Origin: Patescibacteria group bacterium
GTDB lineage: Bacteria; Patescibacteriota; Microgenomatia; 0-14-0-10-38-17
NCBI GenBank assembly: GCA_050947035.1
Contig: JBMNVW010000005.1
Location: 1 to 63,475, forward strand
Length of the DNA: 63,475 nucleotides
Direction: 5' to 3'
Position 1 is the first letter of the stretch; each line of letters starts with the position of its first letter. Positions 2,451 to 35,700 of this stretch are shown piece by piece. A program made the position numbers and the translations under genes. The notes beneath the pieces were generated by a model. That model searched no databases and was not told the origin of the DNA. It saw only the letters and a program-made list of their open reading frames with translations.

Positions 2451-4712
2451 GTGCCTGCCAAAAACTTATCCTTCATTACCAACATTGGCCAAGCCGACAA
2501 CAATAACCAAATCTTAGTCGGGGATAAGGGAGCCTCTTTGGGCGAAATTAATAAACTTGGTCTGGCCACCCCTCCCGGTGTTATTGTCACCACCAAGGCC
2601 TATGACTATTTTATTAAAGAAAACGGGCTTCGACCAAAAATTAGCTCTCTTCTAGAAAGCGTTAATTTTAAAAAACCGGAAAACTTGCAAGAGGTCTCAG
2701 GCCAAATCAAAAAATTAATTCTCGCCAGCCAAATGCCCGAAGACCTGGCTTGGCAAATCATTAAAGCCTACGCTTCACTTGGTCGATTAACCAACCCCCC
2801 GGTTGCTGTCCGCTCTTCGGCGGTTGGTGAAGATTTGCAATCTTCATTCCTAAATGTTTCCGGAGAAGCCAACGTGGTTAAAAAAGTCCAAGAGTGCTGG
2901 GCGTCATTTTTTGAACCACGAGGGATCTTCTTTCGTCAAAAAGCCAAAAAAAATCTTTTCGGTCAGGGCATGGCGGTGGTTATCCAAAAAATGATTCAGG
3001 CCAAAACCGCCGGTGTTCTGTTTACCGCTGATCCGACTGGAGTGAAAAAAAACGTTCTTATCATTGAAGCTATTTGGGGTTTAGGAGAATACCTAGTTCA
3101 AGGCCAAGTCACCCCTGATCAATATTTAATTAACTTTAAAAATGGAAAAATTATTAACCAAAAAATAAATTCCCAAAAAGTTTGTTTAACTAAAAAAAAT
3201 AATAAAAATGTTAAAAGCCTAGTCGCCAAGAAAAAAATTAACCAAGCTAAGCTTTCAGAAAATGAAATCAAACGGCTGGCAGATCTAGCAAAAAAAATCC
3301 ACCAATTTTATTTTTTCCCTCAAGAAATAGAATGGGCTAAAGATAAAAATCAATTTTTTGTTCTCCAATCTCGCCCCTTAGCAACCATTGCCCCTAAAGA
3401 GAAAAAGCCAACCGGAAGAAAAACAATCAAAACTCCACCGCCTATTCTTGAAGGAATTGCTGCTAGTCCAGGAATAATTTCTGGTCCAGTTAAAAAAATA
3501 AAATCCGCCAAAGAAATTAAAAAAATAAAAAAGGGTGACATTTTAGTCGCCCCAATGACAACGCCCGATTTTATTCCGGCTATGCGCCTGATTGGCGGCA
3601 TTATTACCGATCAAGGCGGACAGACTTCCCATGCGGCAATTATTTCTCGAGAATTAAGCATTCCTTGTATTGTTGGCACAAAAAAAGCCACCAAAATCCT
3701 TAAAAATAAGCAAATTGTTACCATCGATGGGCACCAGGGCCAAGTTTTTACCGGCCAAAGAAAAAAATCTTCTAAAAAAACCAAAACTAGAATTAATCCC
3801 AAAAAGGCAAAAAAAATTAAAACCGCTACTAGAATTTATGTTAATTTAAGCGAGCCGGAGGTAGCCAAAACTATTGCCAAAAGAGCCGTTGATGGCGTTG
3901 GCTTGCTACGAGCCGAATTTATGCTAGCCAAAATCGGCACCCATCCCCAGGTCCTAATTAATAAGGGCAAGGAAAAAACTATTATTAAAGAATTATCAAT
4001 TGGCTTAGAAAAAATTTGCCAGGCTTTTTCTCCTCGTCCGGTTGTTTATCGATCCAGCGACTTTAAAACCAATGAATACCGACACTTAACTGGTGGTAAA
4101 AAATATGAACCAGAAGAAGAGAACCCCCTTCTTGGCTCCCGCGGTGCTAGTCGCTATATTGCTAATAGCCGAGTCTTTTCTTTAGAATTAGAGGCAATTA
4201 AAAATATCCGAAATAAAAAAGGTTTAAAAAATCTTTGGTTAATGCTTCCCTTTGTCCGTACTCCAGAAGAATTAATTGAGGTTAAAAAAATTATTGCCAC
4301 CCATGGTTTATCTCGCGGTCCAAGTTTTAAGCTTTGGTTAATGGTAGAAACTCCAGGCAACGTTATTAACTTAGAGAAATTTATCAAGGCTGGTATTGAC
4401 GGTGTTTCTATCGGCACTAACGACTTAACAATGTTGATGTTGGGTGTTGATCGGGATAATGCTAAACTAAATAAACTATTTGATGAAACTAATCCGGCTG
4501 TTCTTTGGGCGATCAAAAAAATTATTAAAACCTGTCAAAAACACGAAATTACTAGTTCAATTTGCGGACAAGTAGTTTCTGATCAACCCGAAAATATTAT
4601 AGAAAAATTAATTTCCTGGGGAATTAGCAGCGTTTCTGTTAACCCTGATGTTATTGAAGAAACCCGACAACTAGTTGCTTGGGCTGAAGAAAAAAATATT
4701 AAAAATGGCTAA
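2451..4712 (+). CDS. ppsA: Phosphoenolpyruvate synthase / PEP-utilising enzyme
   Basis: 753 aa with an N-terminal ATP-grasp-like region (VGDKGASLGE), the phospho-His swivel motif GGQTSHAAIISRELSIPCIVG and a C-terminal PEP/pyruvate TIM-barrel (GVSIGTNDLT). GTG start. Confidence 0.85.
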   Translation: MPAKNLSFITNIGQADNNNQILVGDKGASLGEINKLGLATPPGVIVTTKAYDYFIKENGLRPKISSLLESVNFKKPENLQEVSGQIKKLILASQMPEDLAWQIIKAYASLGRLTNPPVAVRSSAVGEDLQSSFLNVSGEANVVKKVQECWASFFEPRGIFFRQKAKKNLFGQGMAVVIQKMIQAKTAGVLFTADPTGVKKNVLIIEAIWGLGEYLVQGQVTPDQYLINFKNGKIINQKINSQKVCLTKKNNKNVKSLVAKKKINQAKLSENEIKRLADLAKKIHQFYFFPQEIEWAKDKNQFFVLQSRPLATIAPKEKKPTGRKTIKTPPPILEGIAASPGIISGPVKKIKSAKEIKKIKKGDILVAPMTTPDFIPAMRLIGGIITDQGGQTSHAAIISRELSIPCIVGTKKATKILKNKQIVTIDGHQGQVFTGQRKKSSKKTKTRINPKKAKKIKTATRIYVNLSEPEVAKTIAKRAVDGVGLLRAEFMLAKIGTHPQVLINKGKEKTIIKELSIGLEKICQAFSPRPVVYRSSDFKTNEYRHLTGGKKYEPEEENPLLGSRGASRYIANSRVFSLELEAIKNIRNKKGLKNLWLMLPFVRTPEELIEVKKIIATHGLSRGPSFKLWLMVETPGNVINLEKFIKAGIDGVSIGTNDLTMLMLGVDRDNAKLNKLFDETNPAVLWAIKKIIKTCQKHEITSSICGQVVSDQPENIIEKLISWGISSVSVNPDVIEETRQLVAWAEEKNIKNG

Positions 4713-5991
4713 AATTATCGCTGTTGGCGCCCGAGAGATAATTGATTCTCGAGCCACTCCTACCATCGAAACAACCATCTTTTTAGATAATGATATTTTT
4801 GCTACTGCCTCTGTTCCTTCTGGCGCTTCCGTTGGCTCCCATGAAGCCCTAGAGTTGCGAGACGAGGATAAACAGCGCTATTTGGGCAAGGGAGTTTTAA
4901 AAGCTATTTATAACATAGAAAAGGTTATTGCTCCTAAAATTATTGGCCTAGATATAGGAGATCAGGAAAAAATTGATCAAACAATGATCGATTTAGATGG
5001 AACTAAAAATAAAAGCAATTTGGGCGCTAATGCTATTTTGTCTTGCTCTATCACGGCGGTTAAAGCCGCCGCCTTCCATTATCAACGTCACCTATTTGAA
5101 TATGTTTCCGAATTGGCAAAAAATTTTGACCTTAATATTCCTGATAATCAAAAAATGCCTGTTCCCGTTCTTAATTTGATCAACGGCGGCAAACACGGAG
5201 CGGGGAATTTAGAATTCCAAGAATTCCATATTGTTCCCTTGGGAATAAAGACTTTTGCCAATCAAGTTCGAGCAGCTGCCGAAATTTACAAACATGTTGA
5301 AATGGTTTTAACAGAAAACAAGGCTATTCATTCGGTCGGTGATGAGGGCGGTTTTGCTCCTAATCTTTTTACTAATCTTGACGCCCTAGAAGTAGTGGCT
5401 CGGGCCACTAATCGAGCCGGATATATTCTTCATAAAGATGTTTATTTAGGTCTTGATGTGGCGGCCGATTTTTTTTACAAAAAAGGTTATTACAATATTC
5501 GCGACCGAACCTCACCAATGCCTACTCAAGATTTTATTGCCTTTTATCGTCAATTAAGAGAACAATACCCTCTGCTTCTTCTGGAAGATCCTTTATACGA
5601 AGACGACTGGAAGGGTTGGAGTCGTCTAGCTCAAACTCTAGATCTAAACAAGGTTACTCTTGTAGGCGATGATCTTTTATGTACCAACCCGGAAAGAACC
5701 AAAAAAGCCATTCAAGAAAAATCTTGCAACGGCATTTTGGTTAAACCAAATCAGGTAGGAACTATTTCCGAAACCCTGAAAGTTATCAAGATGGCCAAGG
5801 AGGCTGGCTGGAAAACGGTTATTTCTCATCGCAGTGGTGAAACCGCTGATAATTTTATTGCCGACTTTGCTGTTGGTGTTGGTGGTGATTTCGTTAAATT
5901 TGGCGCTCCAGCTCGAGGAGAAAGAACAACAAAATATAATCGACTAATGAAAATTGAAGAAATTCTTAATAACAACCAAGCTAACCATTAA
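4705..5991 (+). CDS. eno: Enolase
   Basis: MAKIIAVGAREIIDSRATPTIE start, SVPSGASVGSHEALELRD, LVKPNQVGTISET and SHRSGETAD motifs. ATG at 4705 preferred over the upstream track start at 4675. Confidence 0.95.
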   Translation: MAKIIAVGAREIIDSRATPTIETTIFLDNDIFATASVPSGASVGSHEALELRDEDKQRYLGKGVLKAIYNIEKVIAPKIIGLDIGDQEKIDQTMIDLDGTKNKSNLGANAILSCSITAVKAAAFHYQRHLFEYVSELAKNFDLNIPDNQKMPVPVLNLINGGKHGAGNLEFQEFHIVPLGIKTFANQVRAAAEIYKHVEMVLTENKAIHSVGDEGGFAPNLFTNLDALEVVARATNRAGYILHKDVYLGLDVAADFFYKKGYYNIRDRTSPMPTQDFIAFYRQLREQYPLLLLEDPLYEDDWKGWSRLAQTLDLNKVTLVGDDLLCTNPERTKKAIQEKSCNGILVKPNQVGTISETLKVIKMAKEAGWKTVISHRSGETADNFIADFAVGVGGDFVKFGAPARGERTTKYNRLMKIEEILNNNQANH

Positions 5992-8375: not shown

Positions 8376-8394
8376 TTCCACCTTCGAGGTGGAA
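8376..8394. repeat. REP-like hairpin, variant of the CCACCTT-N-AAGGTGG family
   Basis: TTCCACCTTCGAGGTGGAA is a perfect palindrome in the rsmI/dedA divergent intergenic region. It has the same arms as the hairpins at 29853, 30613 and 35201. Confidence 0.6.
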
Positions 8395-9140: not shown

Positions 9141-9764
9141 TTACTCACCAAACTTTCTAATCACTCCCTTTACTCGACCCTTAATCGCCACATTTTTAGC
9201 AAAAATGGGTTTCATGCTGCTGTTAGCCGGCTCCAGACGAATACGAGTTTTTTCTTTAAAATAGCGCTTTAGGGTGGCCAAACCATCTTCTAAAATCGCC
9301 ACCACAATATCACCGTCTTTGGCCTGTTCTCTTTCCTCAACAACTACAAAATCACCATCTAAAATCCCCTCATCAACCATTGATTCTCCCTTAACTTGCA
9401 AAACAAAGCTTCTTTTTTTGCCGGAAACTAAATTCGCTGGCACCGATAAAGAGGCATTGGGATCGGTATAAGTCTCAATTGGCGCTCCGGCGGCAATAAA
9501 ACCCAAAATCGGCACCTCAACTTGGGGAGTATTATCGTCAGCCAAGTCTTCATCCAAAATTTCAATACCGCGAATTTTGCCTTTATAACGTCTTAAAACG
9601 CCTTTTTTTTCCAAATTATTTAAGTGCTCGTGAACCGTCGCCAAAGAAGAAACACCAATAGCATCAGCGATTTGCTGTAGAGTAGGGGAAACACCAAATT
9701 TTTGAATATACTGGGCAATAAAATCGAGGATTTGTTTTTGGCGTTTATAAAGAGTAACTGGCAT
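9141..9764 (-). CDS. lexA: LexA repressor
   Basis: wHTH N-terminus (LYKRQKQILDFI ... SPTLQQIADAIGVSS ... HLNNLEKKGVLRR) and an S24 peptidase C-terminus (VKGESM ... GDIVVA ... LKR). ATG at 9764 preferred over the TTG at 9806. Confidence 0.9.
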   Translation of the reverse strand: MPVTLYKRQKQILDFIAQYIQKFGVSPTLQQIADAIGVSSLATVHEHLNNLEKKGVLRRYKGKIRGIEILDEDLADDNTPQVEVPILGFIAAGAPIETYTDPNASLSVPANLVSGKKRSFVLQVKGESMVDEGILDGDFVVVEEREQAKDGDIVVAILEDGLATLKRYFKEKTRIRLEPANSSMKPIFAKNVAIKGRVKGVIRKFGE

Positions 9765-9777
9765 AAGCTTACTCAAA

Positions 9778-9806
9778 AATTTACCAAAGAAAACCCAAAA
9801 AGTCAA
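9778..9806 (-). promoter_or_regulatory. Candidate sigma70-type promoter of lexA
   Basis: On the minus strand: TTGACT (9806-9801), a 17-nt spacer, then TAAATT (9783-9778). This would give a very short leader before the ATG at 9764. Confidence 0.35.
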
Positions 9807-9813
9807 TATTCAT

Positions 9814-9838
9814 TTTTTACACCCCCGGGGTGTAAAAA
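9814..9838 (-). terminator. Perfect 12-bp-arm hairpin directly after the map stop codon
   Basis: TTTTTACACCCC-C-GGGGTGTAAAAA, with A/T runs on both sides (bidirectional terminator shape). It lies about 50 nt upstream of the lexA start. Confidence 0.6.
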
Positions 9839-9839
9839 T

Positions 9840-10601
9840 TTAGCTTAAAGTTAAAATTTCGGCTCCGTTTTTAGTAATCAAAACTGAATGTTCCCATTGG
9901 GCCGACAAAGCTCCATCAAGAGTCCGAACCGTCCAGCCATCGTCAGCATCGGTTCGAACCCGATAATTATCAGAGGCGTTAATCATCGGCTCAATCGTTA
10001 AAATCATACCTGGTTTTAATAAAACATCCTCAAAGCCCAGGTTAAAATGAAAAACAGATGGATCTTCGTGAAATTCTAATCCCACCCCATGACCAGTTAA
10101 GGATCGAACTGAAGCATAGCCAAATTGTTTAACATAATCTTCAATTACTCGACCGACACAATGGTTTAAATATTTACCCGGGGATAAAGCTTCAATTGCT
10201 TTCATTGTGGCCTTTTTGGTTTCGGCAACTAATTTTTTAGCCTCTTTGGCCACTGGCTCAATTAAAAACATTCGCGAAGTATCGCCATAAAAACCGTCCA
10301 AGATTGTTGTCACATCAACATTTAAAATGTCACCTTTTTTTAAAATATCTTCAGGGGAGGGGATACCATGACAAACAACCTCGTTTAAAGAAGTGCAGAC
10401 ACTTTTAGGAAAACCCTGGTAACCAAGAGAGGCTGATTTGGCCCCATGATCAATAATAAATTGATGGGCCAAATCGTTTATTTTCTGAGTGCTAACCCCT
10501 TCCTCAACAAAAGGGGTAAGATAATCTAAGGTTTGAGAAGCCAATCGACAAGAGCGCCTGATACCCTCAATTTGCTTATCGTTTTTAATAATTACTTTCA
10601 T
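9840..10601 (-). CDS. map: Methionine aminopeptidase, type I
   Basis: 253 aa with metal ligands in the VCHGIP, DVTT..DGFYGD, GHGVG and EPM contexts. Confidence 0.95.
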   Translation of the reverse strand: MKVIIKNDKQIEGIRRSCRLASQTLDYLTPFVEEGVSTQKINDLAHQFIIDHGAKSASLGYQGFPKSVCTSLNEVVCHGIPSPEDILKKGDILNVDVTTILDGFYGDTSRMFLIEPVAKEAKKLVAETKKATMKAIEALSPGKYLNHCVGRVIEDYVKQFGYASVRSLTGHGVGLEFHEDPSVFHFNLGFEDVLLKPGMILTIEPMINASDNYRVRTDADDGWTVRTLDGALSAQWEHSVLITKNGAEILTLS

Positions 10602-28771: not shown

Positions 28772-28856
28772 GCCGAAGTGGCGGAACTGGCAGACGCGTA
28801 CGGTTCAGGGCCGTATGGACTCTAAGTCCATGTGGGTTCAATTCCCACCTTCGGCA
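28772..28856 (+). tRNA. tRNA-Leu(CAG)
   Basis: Cloverleaf by hand: acceptor GCCGAAG/CTTCGGC, anticodon arm TACGG-TTCAGGG-CCGTA, long variable arm GGAC..GTCC, T-arm GTGGG-TTCAATT-CCCAC. CCA is not encoded. Confidence 0.9.
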
Positions 28857-28878
28857 CACTACATTATAATAAACTATT

Positions 28879-29055
28879 GAGCGGACGTGTCCCGCCTAAA
28901 ACGGCGGGCAGGTGGAACTTGAAGCGAAGTGAAATCCGCCTATAATCGCAGCATAAGGCGTGAGTGAATAACTCCCCAAAGCCGCATGCTAAGATATGGC
29001 GGAGGCAAAAAATAAAGCTTTAGTTGGTATTTAACAAATTATCGAGCGGACGTGT
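28879..29055 (+). other. 12-nt direct repeat (5' end of tRNA-Leu(GAG)) bracketing a 153-nt GC-rich structured spacer
   Basis: GAGCGGACGTGT occurs at 28879-28890 and 29044-29055. The spacer holds hairpins CCCGCC-TAAAAC-GGCGGG and GGTGGA..TCCGCC, plus GGCGGA able to compete for TCCGCC. Confidence 0.6.
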
Positions 29056-29132
29056 TGGAACTGGCAGACAAGCAAGCTTGAGGAGCTTGTGGGCGCAAGC
29101 CCGTGGAGGTTCAAATCCTCTCGTCCGCACCA
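29046..29132 (+). tRNA. tRNA-Leu(GAG), CCA encoded
   Basis: Acceptor GCGGACG/CGTCCGC, anticodon arm CAAGC-TTGAGGA-GCTTG, variable arm GGGC..GCCC, T-arm GGAGG-TTCAAAT-CCTCT, then ACCA. Confidence 0.9.
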
Positions 29133-29267
29133 GAAAAGAGAGGATGCAGAACCTCCAAAAAAAATTCTGATCTTGGAGATTTTAACCGACAGTCGTGCTG
29201 TTGGTATACCAGTAGACGAGGGGAAAAAGACGGTTCGTGTCGTCTTCAAATCCTCTCGTCCGCACCA
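29133..29267 (+). repeat. tRNA-linked element, copy A (ends in a 23-nt duplicate of the tRNA-Leu(GAG) 3' end)
   Basis: Hairpin GAGG-ATGCAGAA-CCTC mimics the Leu T-stem. Conserved blocks AAAATTCTGAT, GACAGTCGTGCTGTT and GACGGTTCGTGTCGTC follow. It ends with TTCAAATCCTCTCGTCCGCACCA (29245-29267), identical to 29110-29132. Confidence 0.75.
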
Positions 29268-29282
29268 TTTATTTTATTGTTT

Positions 29283-29356
29283 GGATCCGTAGCTCAGTTG
29301 GCTAGAGCGCCCGGTTTACATCCGGAAGGTCACAGGTTCAAGTCCTGTCGGATCCA
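29283..29356 (+). tRNA. tRNA-Val(TAC)
   Basis: Acceptor GGATCCG/CGGATCC, D-arm AGCTCAGTTGGCTAGAGC, anticodon loop TTTACAT, T-arm ACAGG-TTCAAGT-CCTGT. Confidence 0.9.
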
Positions 29357-29382
29357 CAAAACATGATAAAATAGGATTGTTT

Positions 29383-29455
29383 GCCAGGGTAGCCAAGGTG
29401 GTCACGGCGCGTGTCTGAAAAACATGAGATCCCGGCTCAACTCCGGGCCCTGGCA
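29383..29455 (+). tRNA. tRNA-Phe(GAA) with an atypical T-loop
   Basis: Acceptor GCCAGGG/CCCTGGC, anticodon arm CGTGT-CTGAAAA-ACATG, T-arm CCCGG-CTCAACT-CCGGG (C instead of T at loop position 1). Confidence 0.75.
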
Positions 29456-29464
29456 CTTATTTTT

Positions 29465-29536
29465 GCGGCGGTAGTTCAGTGGTAGAATACCTCCTTGCCA
29501 AGGAGAAGGTCGCCGGTTCAAGTCCGGTCCGCCGCT
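29465..29536 (+). tRNA. tRNA-Gly(GCC)
   Basis: Acceptor GCGGCGG/CCGCCGC, anticodon loop TTGCCAA, T-arm GCCGG-TTCAAGT-CCGGT. Confidence 0.9.
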
Positions 29537-29626
29537 CAAAAAATATCAGCGCCAAGTCAGACTTGGCTACTCCAAACAAAGAAATAGCGAACTTTAGTTC
29601 GCGCCAAAAAAATTTTCTTTAATTAT

Positions 29627-29698
29627 TGGGGAGTAGTGTAATGGTAACACGCCAGTCTTTGGAACTGGTTACTCTAGGTTCGAATCCTAGCTCCCCAA
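29627..29698 (+). tRNA. tRNA-Gln(TTG)
   Basis: Acceptor TGGGGAG/CTCCCCA (U1-A72 as in bacterial Gln), anticodon arm CCAGT-CTTTGGA-ACTGG, T-arm CTAGG-TTCGAAT-CCTAG. Confidence 0.9.
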
Positions 29699-29827
29699 CA
29701 TTAAGCTAGGTGAGAACCTAGTAAAAATTCTGATTAACAGAATAACAAAAGACAACCGTGCTGTTATTACACCAACCAACAAGGTAAGAAAGCGGTTCGT
29801 GTCGTCTTCGAATCCTAGCTCCCCAAC
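29699..29827 (+). repeat. tRNA-linked element, copy B (ends in a 21-nt duplicate of the tRNA-Gln 3' end)
   Basis: Hairpin CTAGG-TGAGAA-CCTAG mimics the Gln T-stem. Conserved blocks AAAATTCTGAT, GACAACCGTGCTGTT and AGCGGTTCGTGTCGTC follow. It ends with TTCGAATCCTAGCTCCCCAAC (29807-29827), a duplicate of the tRNA-Gln sequence from T-loop to 3' end. Confidence 0.75.
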
Positions 29828-29852
29828 TAAAAGGCAGGGGAGGCCAGAATTC

Positions 29853-30627
29853 CCACCTTCAAGGTGGTTTTTACCTTGAACCTTATTAGCAACCTTGCTA
29901 AACTAAAACTGTGCCGGGAAGAAAGATAGTTTTAGCTACAGATCAGGTTTACCATCTTTTTAATCGGGGTAATTCATCTCAACCCACTTTCTTGAATGCT
30001 TTTGATTATCGTCGTTTTTTAAAGACAATTAATTTTTACCGTTTCGCTCCTCATTCAGCTAAGCTTTTCCAATTTTTAGAGTTTTCAGAAAAAAGAAGAA
30101 AAGAATATTTTGATAACCTTAAGAAGAAGACAAAAGAATTAGTTTCCATCTTTTCTTTTTGTCTGATGCCCAATCACTATCATCTTTTAGTCAGACAAGA
30201 AGTAGAAAATGGTATTTCCAAGTTCATGTCTCAACTGCAAAACAGCTATACCAAATATTTCAATCTTAAAAGAAAAAAAGCCGGTTCTTTATTCCAGGGC
30301 CATTTTAAAGCGGTCAGAGCAGAGACAGATGAGCAATTAATCCACCTTTCAAGGTATATTCATCTTAACCCCTATTCTTCATATGTAGTAAAATTAATTA
30401 ATAATCTAGAGACTTATCCCTGGTCATCCTTACCTGATTATCTGGGAGAAAAAAAACATTTTTTTGTTAAAAAGAAACCGATTCTCGATTTATTCAAAAA
30501 CAAAAAAGACTACCAGAAATTTGTTTTTGATCAAGCAGACTATCAAAGAGAATTAGAAAAGATTAAACACTTAACTTGGGAGTGATAGAATTAACAAGGT
30601 GTAAAGAGTAAACCACCTTGAAGGTGG
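29853..30627 (+). mobile_element. IS200/RAYT-type unit: HUH Y1 transposase gene flanked by inverted REP-like hairpins
   Basis: CCACCTTCAAGGTGG (29853-29867) and CCACCTTGAAGGTGG (30613-30627) sit in inverted orientation around the single gene 29911-30585. Their flanks match as reverse complements (AAACCACCTTGAAGGTGG). Confidence 0.7.
29911..30585 (+). CDS. REP-associated tyrosine transposase (RAYT / IS200-like Y1 HUH transposase, COG1943-like)
   Basis: 224 aa with YHLFNRGN, the HUH motif in LMPNHYHLLV, GSLFQGHFK and the catalytic Tyr context SRYIHLNPY. GTG start. Confidence 0.8.
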   Translation: MPGRKIVLATDQVYHLFNRGNSSQPTFLNAFDYRRFLKTINFYRFAPHSAKLFQFLEFSEKRRKEYFDNLKKKTKELVSIFSFCLMPNHYHLLVRQEVENGISKFMSQLQNSYTKYFNLKRKKAGSLFQGHFKAVRAETDEQLIHLSRYIHLNPYSSYVVKLINNLETYPWSSLPDYLGEKKHFFVKKKPILDLFKNKKDYQKFVFDQADYQRELEKIKHLTWE

Positions 30628-30651
30628 TATCATACGATAACGGATCGTTGA

Positions 30652-31080
30652 TTGCTATTAATGTTCGGTCAAAAAGTGTGCTACTTGTTTTGCTGTCCAA
30701 TCTGGGTATCCCAGCTCAGTTGTCCAGTCAGTCCTTCGGAAAACATACCATCGTTCGAAAGAGATTGTCAGGAAATAAAAGAAGTTTTTGGGCGAGGTCA
30801 GGGCTTTGGCGAATGGAATAACCCTAAACTTAAAAGGGACAAACAGGCACTCGAAAAAGCTGGTTTCGAGATAATTTACGCCCAAGATTTTTTTTATAAC
30901 GAATTCTATCCAACATACGGAGACTTAGACTTATTCCTTCAAGGCGTGCCAATTTTCGAAGATTTTGATTCTGAGAGGGATAAAGAACCGCTTAAAACAT
31001 ATATAGAAAAGTTCAAAACCAACAAGGGTATCAAGTTCCCCCGACACAGAATTGTTATCGTGGCTAAAAAGAGAAGTTAA
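30652..31080 (+). CDS. Hypothetical protein; possibly the 3' remnant of a gene truncated next to the RAYT unit
   Basis: 142-aa ORF. Only the C-terminal ~90 aa look protein-like (EKAGFEIIYAQDF ... HRIVIVAKK, reminiscent of the C-terminus of class I methyltransferases). The N-terminus is Cys-rich nonsense-like and begins right after the REP hairpin. Confidence 0.3.
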   Translation: MLLMFGQKVCYLFCCPIWVSQLSCPVSPSENIPSFERDCQEIKEVFGRGQGFGEWNNPKLKRDKQALEKAGFEIIYAQDFFYNEFYPTYGDLDLFLQGVPIFEDFDSERDKEPLKTYIEKFKTNKGIKFPRHRIVIVAKKRS

Positions 31081-31081
31081 T

Positions 31082-31426
31082 CTATTCTTGGGGCTTACTT
31101 TTAGAAGATTCCAATTCTATTGCAAAAACTCCCAACTTTTCCTTAAATGGAGGATATAAACTTCTCAAAACCCTAAGAATTTCACCCTTTGGCATTCCTG
31201 GCACAATTCTCTCGGTCTCCTCATGCTCTAACATTTCAGAGAAAGCAAGATACCTTCTTACATCTTTAATCCCAACCTCATGCTCCTCATTCAGGAGAAG
31301 TCTCATGCCAGGCTTTAACTCTTGGATATTCCTATAACCAACCCGAACTTCAACCGTCTTCTTACCATCCAAAATTTCTTCAAGAAATTGTCTTTTTATC
31401 CAGAGTGTTTTTGGTCTTGTGTCCAT
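31082..31426 (-). CDS. ASCH (PUA-like) domain protein
   Basis: LWIKRQFLEEILDGKKTVEVRVGY ... GMRLLLNE matches the ASCH pattern. ATG at 31426 preferred over the TTG at 31444. Last gene of the operon. Confidence 0.6.
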   Translation of the reverse strand: MDTRPKTLWIKRQFLEEILDGKKTVEVRVGYRNIQELKPGMRLLLNEEHEVGIKDVRRYLAFSEMLEHEETERIVPGMPKGEILRVLRSLYPPFKEKLGVFAIELESSKSKPQE

Positions 31427-31440
31427 TTTTTGTTTCTTAT

Positions 31441-32106
31441 TCAAAAATTAGATGCTATAAATTCTATTAATTTACTTTTCACTTCGTCTGGGGAAATATC
31501 CGAGGTGTCAATGGAAAGTGATTTTTCAAAATTAGCGTCAATTATATCCATGAATAAAGGTCTTTCATCTAAATACGCTTGCATCCTCTTCCTGTAGTGC
31601 TCTGGCGTCTCTAGTCTGCCACTACTATCTCGTTGAGATATTCGCTGTAACGCTACCTCCTCTCTTACATCTAAATATAGAGCTAAATTTAGTCTTACGC
31701 CGTTTCTGCGTGCCCAAGCGACCAGGTCTTCTGCTTCGCTCTTTTGTCTAGGTAAACCATCCAAAATAAACCCAACATCTTTAACTTTAAGAATATGGGG
31801 TGCAACGACGCTTATTACAAAATCGGCTGACCAGGAATTATTGTGCCCAAATTGAGCCATAATTTGTCTTGACAGATCACTATCTGTTTGCAACTCCCTT
31901 CTGGTTATCTCACCAAGAGAAATATAATTGGGTTTTGGTTTGATACTGTTCACTAAAGTAGATTTCCCAGCTCCAGGGAGCCCCATCATTACAATATTAA
32001 TTTGACTTATCTTTGCTTCTGCTTCTTCAAATTTTAACCTCTCCATACAAGTGGACTCGGTCGGTTTTGCACCAACTTTTCTCCTTGCGGAGCGTTTTAA
32101 CTGCAT
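31441..32106 (-). CDS. Adenylate-kinase-family nucleoside monophosphate kinase
   Basis: P-loop MMGLPGAGKST, ISLGEITRRE, FILDGLPRQKSEAEDL, and an LID-less short-type region (ALQRISQR). ATG at 32106 lies 4 nt after the upstream stop, which is more plausible than the overlapping track start. Confidence 0.75.
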   Translation of the reverse strand: MQLKRSARRKVGAKPTESTCMERLKFEEAEAKISQINIVMMGLPGAGKSTLVNSIKPKPNYISLGEITRRELQTDSDLSRQIMAQFGHNNSWSADFVISVVAPHILKVKDVGFILDGLPRQKSEAEDLVAWARRNGVRLNLALYLDVREEVALQRISQRDSSGRLETPEHYRKRMQAYLDERPLFMDIIDANFEKSLSIDTSDISPDEVKSKLIEFIASNF

Positions 32107-32110
32107 ATAA

Positions 32111-32950
32111 CTACGAGCCCTTTTCTTTTTTAGGAAAAATGATTGGTAAGGGATCGGATTCAAATTTGTGTCCAGAATAAACTTGGGCACGCTCAAGCAT
32201 AGTAGGAGTATAAATCATAATTGAGTTGGGTAATAAATACCTAATTGTGTTACCAACTAAAGCCTCGCTTGAGGCTATAACTTCTGATCGTTCTTTGATT
32301 TGTTCATCAGTCCACCCAAACAAGTCATAAAACTTTTTACCCCTTTCAATTATTCTCTCAAGAGTTCTTTGCGAAATTGGCAACGGATCGATTTTAATTC
32401 CCTTATAACCAATGGTATCAAACAAAAAAGGAAAAAGCTCACTCAGCAATTCAAACTTCATATCTTTAGGAATATATTTTTTAAGGTTTTTGATGTTTAT
32501 TTTTAGGTCATCAGTCTCTGTAATCGTTTTTTCAGGTTGCTCCACTGCTACATCAAAGAATATGGCTCTAGAAGGTTTGCAACAAAATCCTAATTTCTCT
32601 GTCTTCTTAGTAATATCTTGCAACATTTTGATGCCCCAGCGTGAAGTGTTACCTACATCATCAATTCTAAACCCGTGAACGCCTTTGCCTTTTTTGTAAG
32701 AAGGGCAAAATAAAGCATAAAATTCGAGAGGGTTTTCCTTATTTGAATTGGCTAAAATTCTAGCTAATTTTTGAGTTACTAATTTTGGTCGCCATCCTAT
32801 TGTTTCGATTGATTGAAGATATGAAAACCAATCTAGAACCATTTTATTCTCGCCTATTTCTTCAACGACTATTCTGAGATCGTCATACTGCCATTTAGGT
32901 ATCTTTTGACCACCAAGGTAATTGTTAAGTAATTTATTTATCGAAATCAT
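32111..32950 (-). CDS. Hypothetical protein (279 aa), no family recognised
   Basis: Long ORF that overlaps the CYTH gene by 17 nt and ends 4 nt before the kinase start. I see no diagnostic motif. Its central position in the operon argues that it is real. Confidence 0.6.
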   Translation of the reverse strand: MISINKLLNNYLGGQKIPKWQYDDLRIVVEEIGENKMVLDWFSYLQSIETIGWRPKLVTQKLARILANSNKENPLEFYALFCPSYKKGKGVHGFRIDDVGNTSRWGIKMLQDITKKTEKLGFCCKPSRAIFFDVAVEQPEKTITETDDLKINIKNLKKYIPKDMKFELLSELFPFLFDTIGYKGIKIDPLPISQRTLERIIERGKKFYDLFGWTDEQIKERSEVIASSEALVGNTIRYLLPNSIMIYTPTMLERAQVYSGHKFESDPLPIIFPKKEKGS

Positions 32951-33515
32951 TGAATCTCATGTGAGGCTTAAACGGTAGACCTTTTTTCTTTCGCCACTCT
33001 TGAAAAAGGGTGTCAACAGGTTTAGTTAAGCCTTCCTTAATATCAAATCCAAACTCTTTTGCCAGCTTTTCTATAATTTCCTTTTTTCCCTCAATTTCAA
33101 TTATGTCAGCGTAAGGATATTCATCTAAAGTAACATGCGCCCCATCTATTTCCCATCCAGTCTGATAACGTTCGTAACTTGTGGTGGGTGTAAATTCCAT
33201 TGCTCCAAGGATTTTTTCTATCTCTCCTTTGGGATCCCGAAAAGATATCTCATATTCTATTTCTCTTTTGGCTCCATTTATGGGAGAGAGGGGTTTTTTA
33301 TAGGTAAGAGTTTTATCTCCTGTGTCTCCCAGAATTCTAACCCTGATTCTACCGTTGGTTGTTTGCATAATTCTACTAGGGTTATCAAACATAACGCTGC
33401 TTTGATATTGACGGGCTATTTTAGAAAAGGCTCTAGTATCTAAAACTCTAACCAGAGCTTCTCCGTCTTTAACCCAAAACTTATACTCTAATTCTATATT
33501 TTGTTTATTTTTCAT
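32934..33515 (-). CDS. CYTH-domain protein (triphosphate tunnel metalloenzyme / class IV adenylyl-cyclase-like)
   Basis: N-terminal ExExK signature (IELEYKF), RIRVR, LTYKKP, REIEYEI and LDEYPYADIIEIEG strands typical of the CYTH barrel. ATGA overlap with folE. Confidence 0.75.
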   Translation of the reverse strand: MKNKQNIELEYKFWVKDGEALVRVLDTRAFSKIARQYQSSVMFDNPSRIMQTTNGRIRVRILGDTGDKTLTYKKPLSPINGAKREIEYEISFRDPKGEIEKILGAMEFTPTTSYERYQTGWEIDGAHVTLDEYPYADIIEIEGKKEIIEKLAKEFGFDIKEGLTKPVDTLFQEWRKKKGLPFKPHMRFNDFDK

Positions 33516-34123
33516 AGGGGATGATTAAAATTAGTAGCCAAAGCTAAAAATTCATCTCTTGTTCGCTCATAATTTTTAAAATCCCCTTTGACAGCTGAGG
33601 TTTTGTTCACCGCTTCGCAGTGGACACCTCTCATCTTCATACAAAGGTGAACTCCAGATACCACAATTGCTAGCCCTTGTGGTTTAAGTCTTTTATAAAA
33701 CAAATCAACCGCTTCCTGAGTAAAATCTTCTTGATTCATTGGTCTTTTGGCAATGTGGCGTAGAATGCGAACAGTTTTAGAAAAACCGATTTGTTCACCT
33801 TTTTTGGGAATATAAGCAAAGGCAATGTCATAAATAACTGGTAACATGTGATGAGAACACAGAGAGTAAACCCTTATTGGGCTTTGGACTAACATTCCTT
33901 TATATTCGACTCTCCTGCCGTTGTGTTTGGGAAATAAAACTCTAAAATGTTTCTCTAATTCACTTTTTGATTCTTCTCGGAGCGAAGAGGTAAATTCAGC
34001 CAGCACCTCTACCATCCTCTTGGGAGTGCCTTCATAGTTAGGATCTTTAAGATCTAGACCAAGATTCAATAACAGCTCTTTAGCTGCCAACTCAGCTTTG
34101 GTTAGATTTAATGTTTTTCCCAT
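33512..34123 (-). CDS. folE: GTP cyclohydrolase I (FolE type)
   Basis: 203 aa with GTPKRMVEVL, CSHHMLPV (Cys/His zinc site; Ser replaces the usual Glu), GFSKTVRI, QEDFT and HLCMKMRGV. Confidence 0.85.
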   Translation of the reverse strand: MGKTLNLTKAELAAKELLLNLGLDLKDPNYEGTPKRMVEVLAEFTSSLREESKSELEKHFRVLFPKHNGRRVEYKGMLVQSPIRVYSLCSHHMLPVIYDIAFAYIPKKGEQIGFSKTVRILRHIAKRPMNQEDFTQEAVDLFYKRLKPQGLAIVVSGVHLCMKMRGVHCEAVNKTSAVKGDFKNYERTRDEFLALATNFNHPL

Positions 34124-34170
34124 TTTCGTTGTATAAAAACCCCCTTGTATTATAATGGTCTAAGTGAAAA

Positions 34171-34374
34171 TTATAGCACTACCACCCGCTCCTTACAACT
34201 ATAGGTGGTGCTTAATGCTAGTAGTTGATGAATATGCTTAAATGTGAGTTCTGGGAATTCCAGGATGTCTAACCAGTTAGCTGACCTAAAATCGTTCCAT
34301 TTGTCCAACAGATCGGGCAAACAAGGGCGTTTGGTTGTGGCGCAAGCCGAGACGCCCACCGTGGCCAGCGCCAA
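34171..34374 (-). CDS. Possible small leader ORF or decayed gene fragment upstream of folE
   Basis: 67-codon TTG-initiated ORF in a locally GC-richer stretch. A second overlapping frame (34269..34520) is also partly open. No family recognised. Confidence 0.2.
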   Translation of the reverse strand: MALATVGVSACATTKRPCLPDLLDKWNDFRSANWLDILEFPELTFKHIHQLLALSTTYSCKERVVVL

Positions 34375-34485
34375 GAATCCGTCATTTTGATATTTTGGGC
34401 GTACAATAAAAAGTAGAAACGCAAAATTTTATTTAAGTGATAATATTCATATATATTGAATATTAATAATTTAAAAAATGTAAAT

Positions 34486-34764
34486 ATGAGCAACAAGGTA
34501 GCCGTTAATAACCCAAGCACTAATAAAAAGGATTTAGTAGATTACATAGGTATTAATGGACTTTTTATTGTGGCTATCATCAGTTTCTTCTTTTTTGGTG
34601 GGAGTATCGTTGCAATGTTAGGTACCATTTGCGGGATAGCCGGACTTATATATCTCATTAAAAGGAGGAAAATATTGTCAAGTAGGGATAAATATAGTGG
34701 ATGGGGTTTATTTATACTTTGGATAATTGTTTGGATATTTGTCGCTAGTAAAGGAAATTATTAA
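34486..34764 (+). CDS. Small membrane protein (2 TM helices)
   Basis: ATG at 34486. Two hydrophobic helices flank RRKILSSRDKY. Very AT-rich. Confidence 0.45.
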   Translation: MSNKVAVNNPSTNKKDLVDYIGINGLFIVAIISFFFFGGSIVAMLGTICGIAGLIYLIKRRKILSSRDKYSGWGLFILWIIVWIFVASKGNY

Positions 34765-34777
34765 CCTAAATTAAGTT

Positions 34778-35116
34778 ATGAACTATATAATTCAAATCGC
34801 CGGAACTATATTATTTACCTGTTTATTTGCACTTTTTTTACTAAAGACAACGAAGAGAAAGCCGACGCGCATTACCCTTACAGGTTTCGCTACGCTATTG
34901 CACATTGTATTAGAATTTGGGGCAGAAAGAAGCTTGCCTTTATCAATTTTATCTGTGGCTGGTGGTATTCCTATATATTATTTTTCTTTAGTCGAATCAA
35001 ACGAATTTCTACAAAAATGTTATGAAACAAAAATCAGTAAATCTTTAAAAATATTTATAATCGGATGTTTTGTCTTTCTTATTTTATGGTTCGGACTTTT
35101 GACATTCGGAGGTTAG
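34778..35116 (+). CDS. Small membrane protein (3-4 TM helices)
   Basis: 112 aa, hydrophobic throughout, 13 nt after the preceding small membrane ORF. Confidence 0.45.
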   Translation: MNYIIQIAGTILFTCLFALFLLKTTKRKPTRITLTGFATLLHIVLEFGAERSLPLSILSVAGGIPIYYFSLVESNEFLQKCYETKISKSLKIFIIGCFVFLILWFGLLTFGG

Positions 35117-35200
35117 TTGCGAAAATATGCAAACTAGTAATCCGACACCAACGCATCGCAATAAACTAGAAAAAGGTGAAAAAAACTTGAAAAGGGAAAA

Positions 35201-35215
35201 CCACCTTGAAGGTGG
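35201..35215. repeat. Solo REP-like hairpin CCACCTTGAAGGTGG
   Basis: Identical to the hairpin at 30613-30627, including the AAA 5' flank, and in the same orientation. Confidence 0.7.
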
Positions 35216-35236
35216 TGTCCCTAGTATCAAAACCAC

Positions 35237-35461
35237 ATGACAAACCCAGAAAGCCCAAATTTAGATACCCTACAAATGGCTGATTTGCAAAAATTCTTAA
35301 CCGGACGCCCCAGAGAACAACTAGAAAAAGATCTCCAACAGTTGATCAACGATTCTCAGACCGATAAAGGACCATATCACTCGGGCGGTACTCCAGCCAA
35401 TGTCTCTAGGACCTATATTATTATCCAAGAAACCCTGGAACAATCGGCTAAGGAGAAATAA
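35237..35461 (+). CDS. Hypothetical small protein (possible antitoxin partner)
   Basis: 74 aa, hydrophilic. Its TAATG stop/start overlap with the next ORF suggests a two-gene module. Confidence 0.4.
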   Translation: MTNPESPNLDTLQMADLQKFLTGRPREQLEKDLQQLINDSQTDKGPYHSGGTPANVSRTYIIIQETLEQSAKEK

Positions 35462-35700
35462 TGGTGACCAAGATAATTTATACCAACCATGCCGTCAAAA
35501 GAATCCCTGACCAAGGCCTAGAGAAGTGGCAAGTCAAAAAAACCCTTAACAAACCCGATCTGATTCGCCCCTCAACCGCGCCAGGTTGTAAAAATTATGT
35601 CCGGGTCAACAACCACCTCGAAATTGGGGCAACCGTCAAAAAAACTGACGATGGTAATTGGTTGGTTATCTCCGCCTGGAAGAGAGAATTGACAAAATAA
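35461..35700 (+). CDS. DUF4258-like small protein (putative toxin)
   Basis: 79 aa. The IIYTNHAVKRI ... WLVISAW pattern resembles DUF4258. Confidence 0.45.
   Translation: MVTKIIYTNHAVKRIPDQGLEKWQVKKTLNKPDLIRPSTAPGCKNYVRVNNHLEIGATVKKTDDGNWLVISAWKRELTK

Follow-up and report, generated by a model that had tools for sequence, protein, structure and literature searches.

FolE and FolE2 convert GTP into dihydroneopterin triphosphate and formate, and GTP cyclohydrolase II (GCH II) yields a diaminopyrimidine ribotide, formate and pyrophosphate. The early folate pathway starts with FolE, for which FolE2 can be exchanged, and goes on with a phosphohydrolase directed at the triphosphate. In the 7-deazaguanine clusters (queuosine and preQ0), FolE heads a compact, mobile operon that retailors guanine, as in the FolE-QueD-QueE-QueC-DpdA clusters of phages; phage Dp-1 contains such a full cluster. 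In Chlamydia, RibA (a GCH II) and TrpF bypass FolE and FolQ on the way into folate (PMC4161248). Here, we describe a five-gene operon headed by a FolE-like GTP cyclohydrolase I (GCH I) in an uncultured, ultra-small Patescibacteria group bacterium (assembly GCA_050947035.1, contig JBMNVW010000005.1, positions 1 to 63,475; this whole stretch of 63,475 nucleotides is called the window). It is a GTP-cyclohydrolase-initiated operon of an undescribed type, defined by a protein family named X here; it begins as the pathways to folate, biopterin, queuosine and riboflavin do, and has no later enzyme in common with them. We give a probability of about 0.5 to the reading that the operon represents, with FolE as its cyclohydrolase, an undescribed biosynthetic module that moves horizontally. 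This module would convert a guanine nucleotide within few steps to a phosphorylated, non-canonical metabolite derived from guanine, either of the pterin type or of the ring-opened pyrimidine type (the same estimate covers this metabolite class).

The operon occupies positions 31082-34123 and comprises five co-directional, tightly packed genes on the minus strand. The order is FolE-like, CYTH, X, adenylate kinase (ADK)-like kinase and ASCH, and the features are as follows:

34170..34198, minus strand: promoter-like site TTGTAA-17-TATAAT with a TG extended -10 (sigma-70-like consensus match 10/12)
33512..34123, minus strand: FolE-like GTP cyclohydrolase I, 203 aa (PF01227, E 7.6e-41)
32934..33515, minus strand: CYTH / triphosphate-tunnel metalloenzyme (TTM), 193 aa (PF01928, E 2e-13)
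32111..32950, minus strand: protein X, 279 aa, no significant family
31441..32106 (or start 32046), minus strand: ADK-like nucleoside monophosphate (NMP) kinase of the short-lid type (PF00406, E 2.7e-17)
31082..31426 or 31444, minus strand: ASCH-domain protein, last gene of the operon, 114-120 aa (PF04266, E 1.2e-8)

The original prediction had placed five genes at these positions, and open reading frames (ORFs) and domain matches confirmed them, all on the minus strand. It had also described every junction as an overlap or a gap of 14 nt or less. As read from the sequence this was correct: FolE and CYTH overlap by 4 nt (ATGA, 33512-33515), CYTH and X overlap by 17 nt (32934-32950), and a 14-nt gap separates the kinase stop (31441) from the ASCH ATG (31426). 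However, the distance between the X stop (32111) and the kinase is 4 nt with the ATG at 32106 and 64 nt with a start at 32046. The kinase start is ambiguous because the relatives align from Met51 (32046) onward, and judged by these alignments the Met at 32046 is more likely to be the start than the ATG at 32106, so this gap may be 64 nt. The promoter-like site, a candidate operon promoter by consensus match alone, lies 47 nt upstream of the FolE start. No riboswitch or other cis-regulatory RNA was found upstream of the operon or of nine related loci.

Loci encoding X were gathered through a one-genome-per-species scan, individual protein look-ups, a viral scan and a metagenome scan with distant homologues. 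Domains were mapped on all 96 loci by seed searches, which gave 69 non-redundant X loci, and the neighbour counts below use the 55 non-redundant loci with at least 1.3 kb upstream. X was present in 27 of 185,579 species genomes, all of them metagenome-assembled genomes (MAGs). A GTP cyclohydrolase was encoded within four genes of X in 52/55 loci and a CYTH gene in 49/55, and the order was invariably GTP cyclohydrolase, CYTH, X. The overlaps were kept across the loci (4 or 1 nt between cyclohydrolase and CYTH; median -17 nt between CYTH and X). The hosts of this core were Patescibacteria, Saccharibacteria and gut Firmicutes MAGs, and the flanking genes differed almost everywhere.

The exact five-gene set was found in the same order in four metagenome loci (L058, L059, L060 and L085), which bore out the co-occurrence on which the original prediction had staked its reading. 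The nucleotide identity to these loci was ~73% and was confined to the operon (window 31071-34139), with unrelated flanks. The proteins shared 86-87% (FolE), 73% (CYTH), 75% (X), 66-68% (kinase) and 83-88% (ASCH) identity. Because the five-gene order recurs with unrelated flanks and the core recurs in non-redundant loci, the arrangement is not due to chance. The block also lies outside a syntenic core position, in agreement with the earlier view that it is not housekeeping synteny. The conserved unit is the translationally coupled trio of GTP cyclohydrolase, CYTH and X. The five genes had been taken as one unit, and this unit does recur in four loci; however, the kinase and ASCH are accessory to the trio, and FolE is replaceable. 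The cyclohydrolase of the 52 loci was FolE in 24, FolE2 in 4, a fusion of GCH II with a TTM domain (GCH II~TTM) in 20 and a canonical GCH II in 4. Four classes were distinguished:

Class 1: FolE-CYTH-X, then the kinase in 15/24 loci, then ASCH in the window and 4 loci; ADK-FolE fusion in three loci
Class 2: GCH II-like protein of ~510 aa, CYTH, Qng1-like Q_salvage gene (9 loci), X; never a kinase
Class 3: FolE2 (GCYH-IB)-CYTH-X (X in part as ADK fusion)-nucleoside diphosphate kinase (NDK)-(NUDIX)
Class 4: ADK, tRNA-Thr, X' fused to or followed by LPG_synthase_C/DUF2156, DegT aminotransferase, ADK~GCH II fusion, NTPase_I-T; no CYTH

Class 2 was hosted by gut Firmicutes, one Saccharibacteria MAG and one Muribaculaceae MAG. 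The X' proteins of class 4 are distant X homologues (25-35% identity) and are often encoded beside a Gre-factor gene. At least one exchange of the cyclohydrolase falls inside the X tree. The four cyclohydrolases are interchangeable, and therefore the required activity would be the step of GTP ring opening. The Chlamydia route is a precedent for the swap between GCH I and GCH II that the module implies; it differs in that it ends in folate and in that the module has no TrpF-like isomerase. Fusions with nucleotide-handling domains were also found (ADK-FolE, ADK-GCH II, X-ADK and NDK-X), as were NUDIX and Qng1-like neighbours. The gene set had been described as no named system, and this view stood: FolE, CYTH and X had no match in PADLOC, and no description of the module was found in the literature.

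In the FolE-like protein of the window, PF01227 spans residues 12-195. Alignments with solved GCH I structures and with E. coli FolE indicated that the zinc ligands Cys110, His113 and Cys181 (E. coli numbering) were kept, together with His112, His179, Ser135 and Gln151-Glu152. The protein scored under every NCBIfam FolE cut-off (best 145 vs 162 bits; TIGR00063 126 vs 182). The replacement of the canonical C-E-H-H motif by C-S-H-H, noticed at the outset, proved real by alignment and occurred in 25/28 module FolEs; C-E-H-H was retained in two module loci. Pseudomonas phage vB_PpuM-Peetri (L098, 8992-9732) encodes a FolE-like protein with C-S-H-H, clustered with a QueE-like radical-SAM gene and unannotated genes, and the Glu-to-Ser variant is thus not confined to the module. 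Such a QueE-like context needs ordinary dihydroneopterin triphosphate. The FolE of phage Dp-1, inside the full queuosine cluster, has C-E-H-H. C-S-H-H is a clade-typical signature, neither required nor diagnostic of new chemistry. The idea that a FolE with C-S-H-H stops at a ring-opened intermediate was weakened by the two module loci with C-E-H-H and by the phage protein in its QueE context.

The retained catalytic residues, the two C-E-H-H loci and the phage protein with C-S-H-H beside a QueE-like gene would also suit ordinary pterin/folate or queuosine-precursor metabolism, in which CYTH replaces FolQ/NudB, X catalyses a later step and the other genes lie elsewhere in the genome. FolE2 is a known substitute for FolE, 9 gut loci contain an inserted Qng1-like gene of queuosine salvage, and FolD adjoins the module in L041. 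However, folB/K/P, queC/D/E and tgt were found beside the module in 0/69 loci. No folate, queuosine or riboflavin genes were detected among the 27 flanking ORFs scanned in the window (17.7-47.4 kb) either, in line with the earlier statement that this is no standard folate, queuosine or archaeosine operon. Compared with the early folate pathway, the phosphohydrolase of the module is a CYTH/TTM protein and not a Nudix protein, FolB, FolK and FolP are missing, the cyclohydrolase can be swapped for GCH II, and NMP/NDP kinases and X are added. The clusters for 7-deazaguanine resemble the module in the leading FolE, in the Qng1-like salvage glycosidase of the gut module and in the C-S-H-H FolE of the phage QueE cluster, but QueD, QueE, QueC, TGT and DpdA are absent from all 69 module loci, and CYTH, X and the kinases belong to no deazaguanine pathway. 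The module is rare (27 species genomes), patchy across phyla, set in unrelated flanks and next to mobile elements, which is unlike core metabolism. Versions of the GCH II type give no pterins without an extra isomerase, and the kinase, NDK and NTPase partners are foreign to folate and queuosine synthesis. We regard this explanation as unlikely.

The class 2 GCH II-like protein kept the zinc cysteines and contained a 10-residue insertion; where RibA has Tyr105, it invariably had Leu. In its GCH II domain, QEGR was changed to QEGQ (L003 4654-6192 and about 20 other loci). In the predicted structure of the ~510-aa protein (predicted local distance difference test score, pLDDT, 82), the C-terminal part formed a barrel that resembled TTMs from archaea and bacteria as well as class IV cyclases (E ~1e-6, template modelling score (TM) to target 0.6-0.65). 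Since this barrel matches TTMs, a TTM domain is physically fused to the cyclohydrolase in class 2. A sequence-profile relation of this C-terminal domain to CYTH or X was tried with hhalign and none was obtained; the predicted fold alone shows the TTM barrel. The GCH II of class 4 has the canonical size and keeps the Tyr, and it is the only type that lacks CYTH and has NTPase_I-T instead.

The residues E8xE10xK, R56xR58, K73, E85xE87, S113-R116 (SYER), D131 and E140xE142 were invariant in the 24 module CYTHs, which thus keep the full residue set that marks an active TTM. CYTH carries a conserved, family-specific C-terminal extension, and its closest solved relative is Pyrococcus PH1819. By score it is not the class IV adenylate cyclase CyaB (TIGR00318, 33 vs a cut-off of 58 bits). 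The gene overlap, the GCH II fusion and the exchange for NTPase_I-T suggest that CYTH is functionally tied to the cyclohydrolase.

The kinase had a P-loop and the overall ADK domain, and its best NCBIfam Adk match reached 73 bits vs a cut-off of 187. Its relatives measure 201-211 aa. At the position of E. coli Adk Gln92, which reads the adenine, a Glu was found by motif in 25/27 distinct module kinases and by eye in the other two; the same Glu was present in the kinases fused to FolE, GCH II or X. Because the Adk score is low and the Gln92 position is Glu, the protein is an ADK-fold NMP kinase that is probably not AMP-specific. We infer that the kinase is specific for bases offering the hydrogen-bond donors found on the N1/N2 face of guanine, a face that all cyclohydrolase products retain. 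The kinase is a frequent accessory in the FolE-type loci and is absent from all gut GCH II~TTM loci.

The ASCH protein matched PF04266 at 36 bits (gathering 21.2) and also phrog_19935. Its closest solved relatives are the uncharacterised Pyrococcus ASCH proteins PF0469 (E 1e-13) and PH0355. ASCH followed the kinase in only 4 other loci, where its amino-acid identity exceeded that of X and the kinase. The locus of the closest X relative, L042 (83% identity), has no ASCH gene, and neither do L001 and L066. ASCH is a subclade-specific accessory. On the basis of 45 loci, an ASCH unique to the window had been considered, and this was overturned by the metagenome scan, which gave the four further loci.

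Neither protein X by itself nor a profile of 47 family members had a match in Pfam, NCBIfam, PHROG, PADLOC or PDB sequences, and none of the 47 members matched Pfam even at E up to 5. There were 175 close homologues (53-85% identity across phyla) and 90 representatives of 50%-identity clusters; none was named and none had a Pfam domain. The original prediction had pointed to this protein for structure prediction and remote homology, which returned no sequence relative and a class-I-aminoacyl-tRNA synthetase (aaRS)-like predicted fold. The AlphaFold (AF2) model was confident (pLDDT 93, predicted TM score (pTM) 0.90). Against the PDB, Foldseek ranked the isonitrile synthases PIsnA/PvcA first (E 3e-4, TM up to 0.56), followed by the catalytic domains of tyrosyl-tRNA synthetase (TyrRS) and by cyclodipeptide synthases (CDPSs); in the viral library, solely giant-virus Tyr/Trp-tRNA ligases and a CDPS were matched. 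With isonitrile synthases, TyrRS and CDPSs on top, X would have a class-I-aaRS-like Rossmann fold. The invariants of the family are Cys82, Pro83, Tyr85, Gly100, Glu137, Tyr208 and Arg221, with the motif FCPSYKKG. In the secondary structure of the model, Cys82 stands at the end of the first Rossmann strand, which may correspond to the HIGH position of class I synthetases and to the position of the acyl-accepting Ser in CDPSs. Given the conserved polar and basic invariant set, the identity across phyla and the confident model, X looks like an enzyme. It is the signature protein of the module and represents an uncharacterised new family.

The isonitrile synthases IsnA/PvcA/PIsnA (DIT1_PvcA), the best structural matches, are cofactor-independent enzymes built on a class-I-aaRS-like fold; they couple the amine of an amino acid to a ketose phosphate. 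In contrast, X has no PF05141 match, the Fe/2-oxoglutarate oxygenase (IsnB/PvcB) occurs in no module locus, and the neighbours are nucleotide enzymes and not tailoring genes for natural products. The CDPSs (tRNA-dependent, class-Ic aaRS-like) are of a similar fold class; Cys82 would be the nucleophile in X, and in the sister class a tRNA gene and an aminoacyl-tRNA-dependent transferase domain accompany the X homologue. The catalytic set of CDPSs is Ser plus Tyr/Glu/Tyr, and the X invariants Cys82, Tyr85, Glu137 and Tyr208 might be set beside it. Unlike CDPSs, X had no CDPS Pfam match, the TM was 0.36-0.44, and there were no diketopiperazine tailoring genes. Distant X homologues were fused to ADK, to NDK or to the aminoacyl-tRNA-dependent transferase domain.

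In class 4, a tRNA-Thr gene lay directly upstream of X' (45-80 nt) in 6/7 non-redundant loci, with the anticodons TGT, AGT and CGT:

tRNA-Thr genes of class 4: L035 7918-7993; L047 5849-5921; L048 953-1026; L049 5729-5802; L053 372-445; L061 102-175

The amino-acid identity of the tRNA and not its anticodon is conserved, which suggests threonyl-tRNA as a substrate of the class 4 cluster. This tRNA gene, the LPG_synthase_C/DUF2156 domain fused to or following X' and the position of X among TyrRS catalytic domains and tRNA-bound CDPSs would all agree with an RNA- or tRNA-directed system, in which X works on or with tRNA, the product is a GTP-derived moiety on RNA or an aminoacyl-tRNA product, and ASCH reads or trims it. 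The ASCH fold (PUA-like, binding RNA or modified bases) is more conserved than X, CYTH and the kinase, and the Qng1-like nucleotide glycosidase of the gut loci would fit as well. However, no HIGH or KMSKS motif and no anticodon-binding or extra RNA-binding domain was found in X, ASCH is absent from most loci, and the tRNA-Thr could serve the DUF2156 domain alone. The tRNAs that neighbour the window class are mixed (Lys, Val, Asp, Gly, Asn), as they are over classes 1-3, and insertion beside tRNA genes explains them better than substrate supply. The tRNA-Lys beside X in three class-1 loci was considered as a hint to the substrate and rejected as a probable chance or insertion-site effect, since the tRNAs beside other loci are those for Val, Asp, Gly and Asn. 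An RNA-directed system seems rather improbable to us.

The patchy, horizontal distribution, the unrelated flanks and the common mobile neighbours (repetitive extragenic palindromic (REP) elements and a REP-associated tyrosine transposase (RAYT) in the window; a serine integrase and IS elements elsewhere) are also what an anti-phage or conflict system would show. On infection, it would deplete GTP or make a toxic or chain-terminating guanine analogue, and the kinases would supply or activate this compound as in viperin-kinase fusions. Both kinds of system have an NMP kinase fused or adjacent to an NTP-consuming enzyme (here ADK-FolE and ADK-GCH II), plausibly for substrate supply; however, the module contains no radical-SAM viperin and the PADLOC match was weak (E 4e-3). 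One FolE2 version (L034) lies beside a reverse transcriptase with an RT-16 RNA (RF03019, 86 bits), AAA_5 and MazE (4095-4255, 4366-5436), and these surroundings look like a defence island. The kinase had weak PADLOC matches to VakA and pVip-kinase, and Gre-factor genes adjoin six loci. In PADLOC-DB 2.0, however, FolE, CYTH and X had no match, and the matches of the kinase (E 4.5e-4 to 9e-3) and of ASCH (E 0.036) were sub-threshold. Neither a sensor nor an effector of the nuclease, membrane or NADase type was present, and housekeeping genes (DnaK/GrpE, EF-P, NrdDG) surround many of the loci. Conflict genes rarely show the very strong conservation across phyla that X has. X was carried by only 2 viral contigs, at a prophage border beside a serine integrase, and the cyclohydrolase was disrupted in them. 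A role as phage-borne cargo was rejected on the same two contigs, where a transposase fragment interrupts the cyclohydrolase. We consider a defence function improbable. The original prediction had proposed a modified guanine-derived nucleotide for production or sensing, with signalling or defence as possible roles; a guanine-derived nucleotide or metabolite is still the most reasonable product class, and sensing, signalling and defence found no direct support.

In the metabolic module that we prefer, the ADK-like kinase, with its Glu reading the 2-amino-4-oxo face of the base, would phosphorylate GMP or a guanine-type NMP to the diphosphate, and NDK or housekeeping enzymes would complete GTP. 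The GTP cyclohydrolase would then open the imidazole ring, and C8 would leave as formate, as expected from family-level knowledge and from the catalytic residues present; the product would most likely be 7,8-dihydroneopterin triphosphate with FolE or FolE2 and the diaminopyrimidine ribotide with GCH II. CYTH would hydrolyse or cyclise the triphosphate of the cyclohydrolase product, as the counterpart of the FolQ/NudB step. This is suggested by the invariant TTM residues, the overlapping genes, the GCH II fusion and the replacement by NTPase_I-T where GCH II releases pyrophosphate. We speculated that X performs the committed, pathway-defining reaction on the dephosphorylated intermediate. It may be a condensation or an acyl transfer onto an amine or a keto-sugar phosphate, perhaps with an amino acid or an aminoacyl-tRNA as co-substrate. 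This speculation on acyl transfer draws on the fold like those of IsnA/PvcA, TyrRS and CDPSs and on the invariant Cys where CDPSs have Ser; its strongest hint is the tRNA-Thr of class 4. In the ASCH subclade only, ASCH might bind or trim the product or an RNA carrying it.

Several points weigh against the preferred reading. The product and the activities of the module are proposed from its genes, and none of the metatranscriptomes searched for the operon sequence contained it. In three loci, CYTH and X occur without an adjacent cyclohydrolase. The products of FolE/FolE2 and of GCH II differ, and therefore a common substrate of X needs an extra assumption. By analogy with Streptomyces GCH II, the Leu at the RibA Tyr105 position in the gut GCH II~TTM proteins would presumably cause formyl retention, a prediction that is hard to reconcile with a single scheme. 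A kinase and a triphosphatase together would look futile unless they act on different molecules, and the gut loci have no such kinase. The similarity of X to the IsnA, TyrRS and CDPS folds is modest (TM 0.4-0.56, ~10% identity), and the tRNA-Thr genes accompany a class of distant paralogues (25-35% identity), not the class of the window.

A more far-reaching version of the preferred reading, which we put forward tentatively and hold to be less probable than its counterpart above, is that X with its invariant Cys, possibly with an aminoacyl-tRNA as donor, decorates or re-closes the ring-opened guanine or pterin and so makes a new molecule. Examples might be an aminoacylated pterin and a guanine nucleotide substituted at position 8. 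The guanine-face kinases might then keep such a product in the nucleotide pool, where it could serve ultra-small and gut bacteria as a cofactor, a signal or a building block of nucleic acids; both of these suggestions share the same tentative standing.

The operon of the window lies in a mobile-looking neighbourhood, and the tRNA cluster and transposase reported nearby were both recovered: six tRNA genes at 28772-29699 and an IS200/Y1, REP-associated-type tyrosine transposase at 29911-30585. The flanking genes encode UvrA, UvrC, a transglutaminase-like protein, a two-component system and hydrolases. A REP-like hairpin (CCACCTT-S-AAGGTGG) was present in 4 copies in the window, vs 0.01 expected by chance:

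REP-like hairpin copies: 29853-29896, 30593-30631, 35181-35219 and also 8378-8392

The Y1/REP-associated transposase is flanked by two inverted copies. The copies at 30613 and 35201 form direct repeats around a 4.6-kb block that contains orf142, the five-gene operon and two small membrane ORFs. Just past a REP copy, two ORFs on the plus strand (35237-35461 and 35461-35700; 74 and 79 aa) are joined by a 1-nt ATGA-type junction; the pair (35237-35700) looks toxin-antitoxin-style, and neither ORF had a Pfam match at E 1e-3. In one contig from a biofilm metagenome, window positions 30278 and 36161 are linked, so that 5.9 kb, the operon included, are missing. The shorter side of this join measures only 24 nt, with ambiguous letters between, and it may represent a strain without the block or an assembly artefact. 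The metagenomes that hold window sequence came from landfill, leachate, bioreactor and digester, and a 5-kb contig of another study equals window 29800-34803 with three differences.

Some further observations were made at other module loci. The chromosome of Fusibacter sp. JL216-2 (CP192292, 5587-12173; L046) was the sole genome of a cultured isolate seen with the module. There, methyltransferase and FolE2 genes precede X', an IS66 transposase interrupts X', and GCH II~TTM and CYTH come next; the locus is apparently composite and inactivated. In a gut Bacillales MAG, the module is followed at a distance of ~1.3 kb by a full-length ROOL RNA (L015 6449-7022; Rfam RF03087, 194 bits). Genes of the GreA/GreB family directly adjoin the module in six non-redundant Patescibacteria loci of varied architecture, which is more than expected for a gene of 1-3 copies and may hint at a link with factors of the RNA polymerase secondary channel; one of these loci (L001) also has a DksA/TraR gene at 9521-9859.

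Gre-family neighbours: L001 6448-6804, L040 308-1144, L035 12863-13336, L041 4197-6292, L047, L049

The syntheses of folate, biopterin, queuosine, riboflavin and methanopterin all begin with a GTP cyclohydrolase, and a further compact route would add a product to this list. The module would also give a function to a protein family, X, that has no annotation anywhere and that shares 53-85% identity between Patescibacteria and gut Firmicutes. The module has just 3-5 genes, with GMP or GTP as clear candidate substrates, and direct reconstitution in vitro or in E. coli should be feasible. The carrier groups are known for very small genomes with few biosynthetic genes, and the genes that they retain are therefore likely to be important to their lifestyle.

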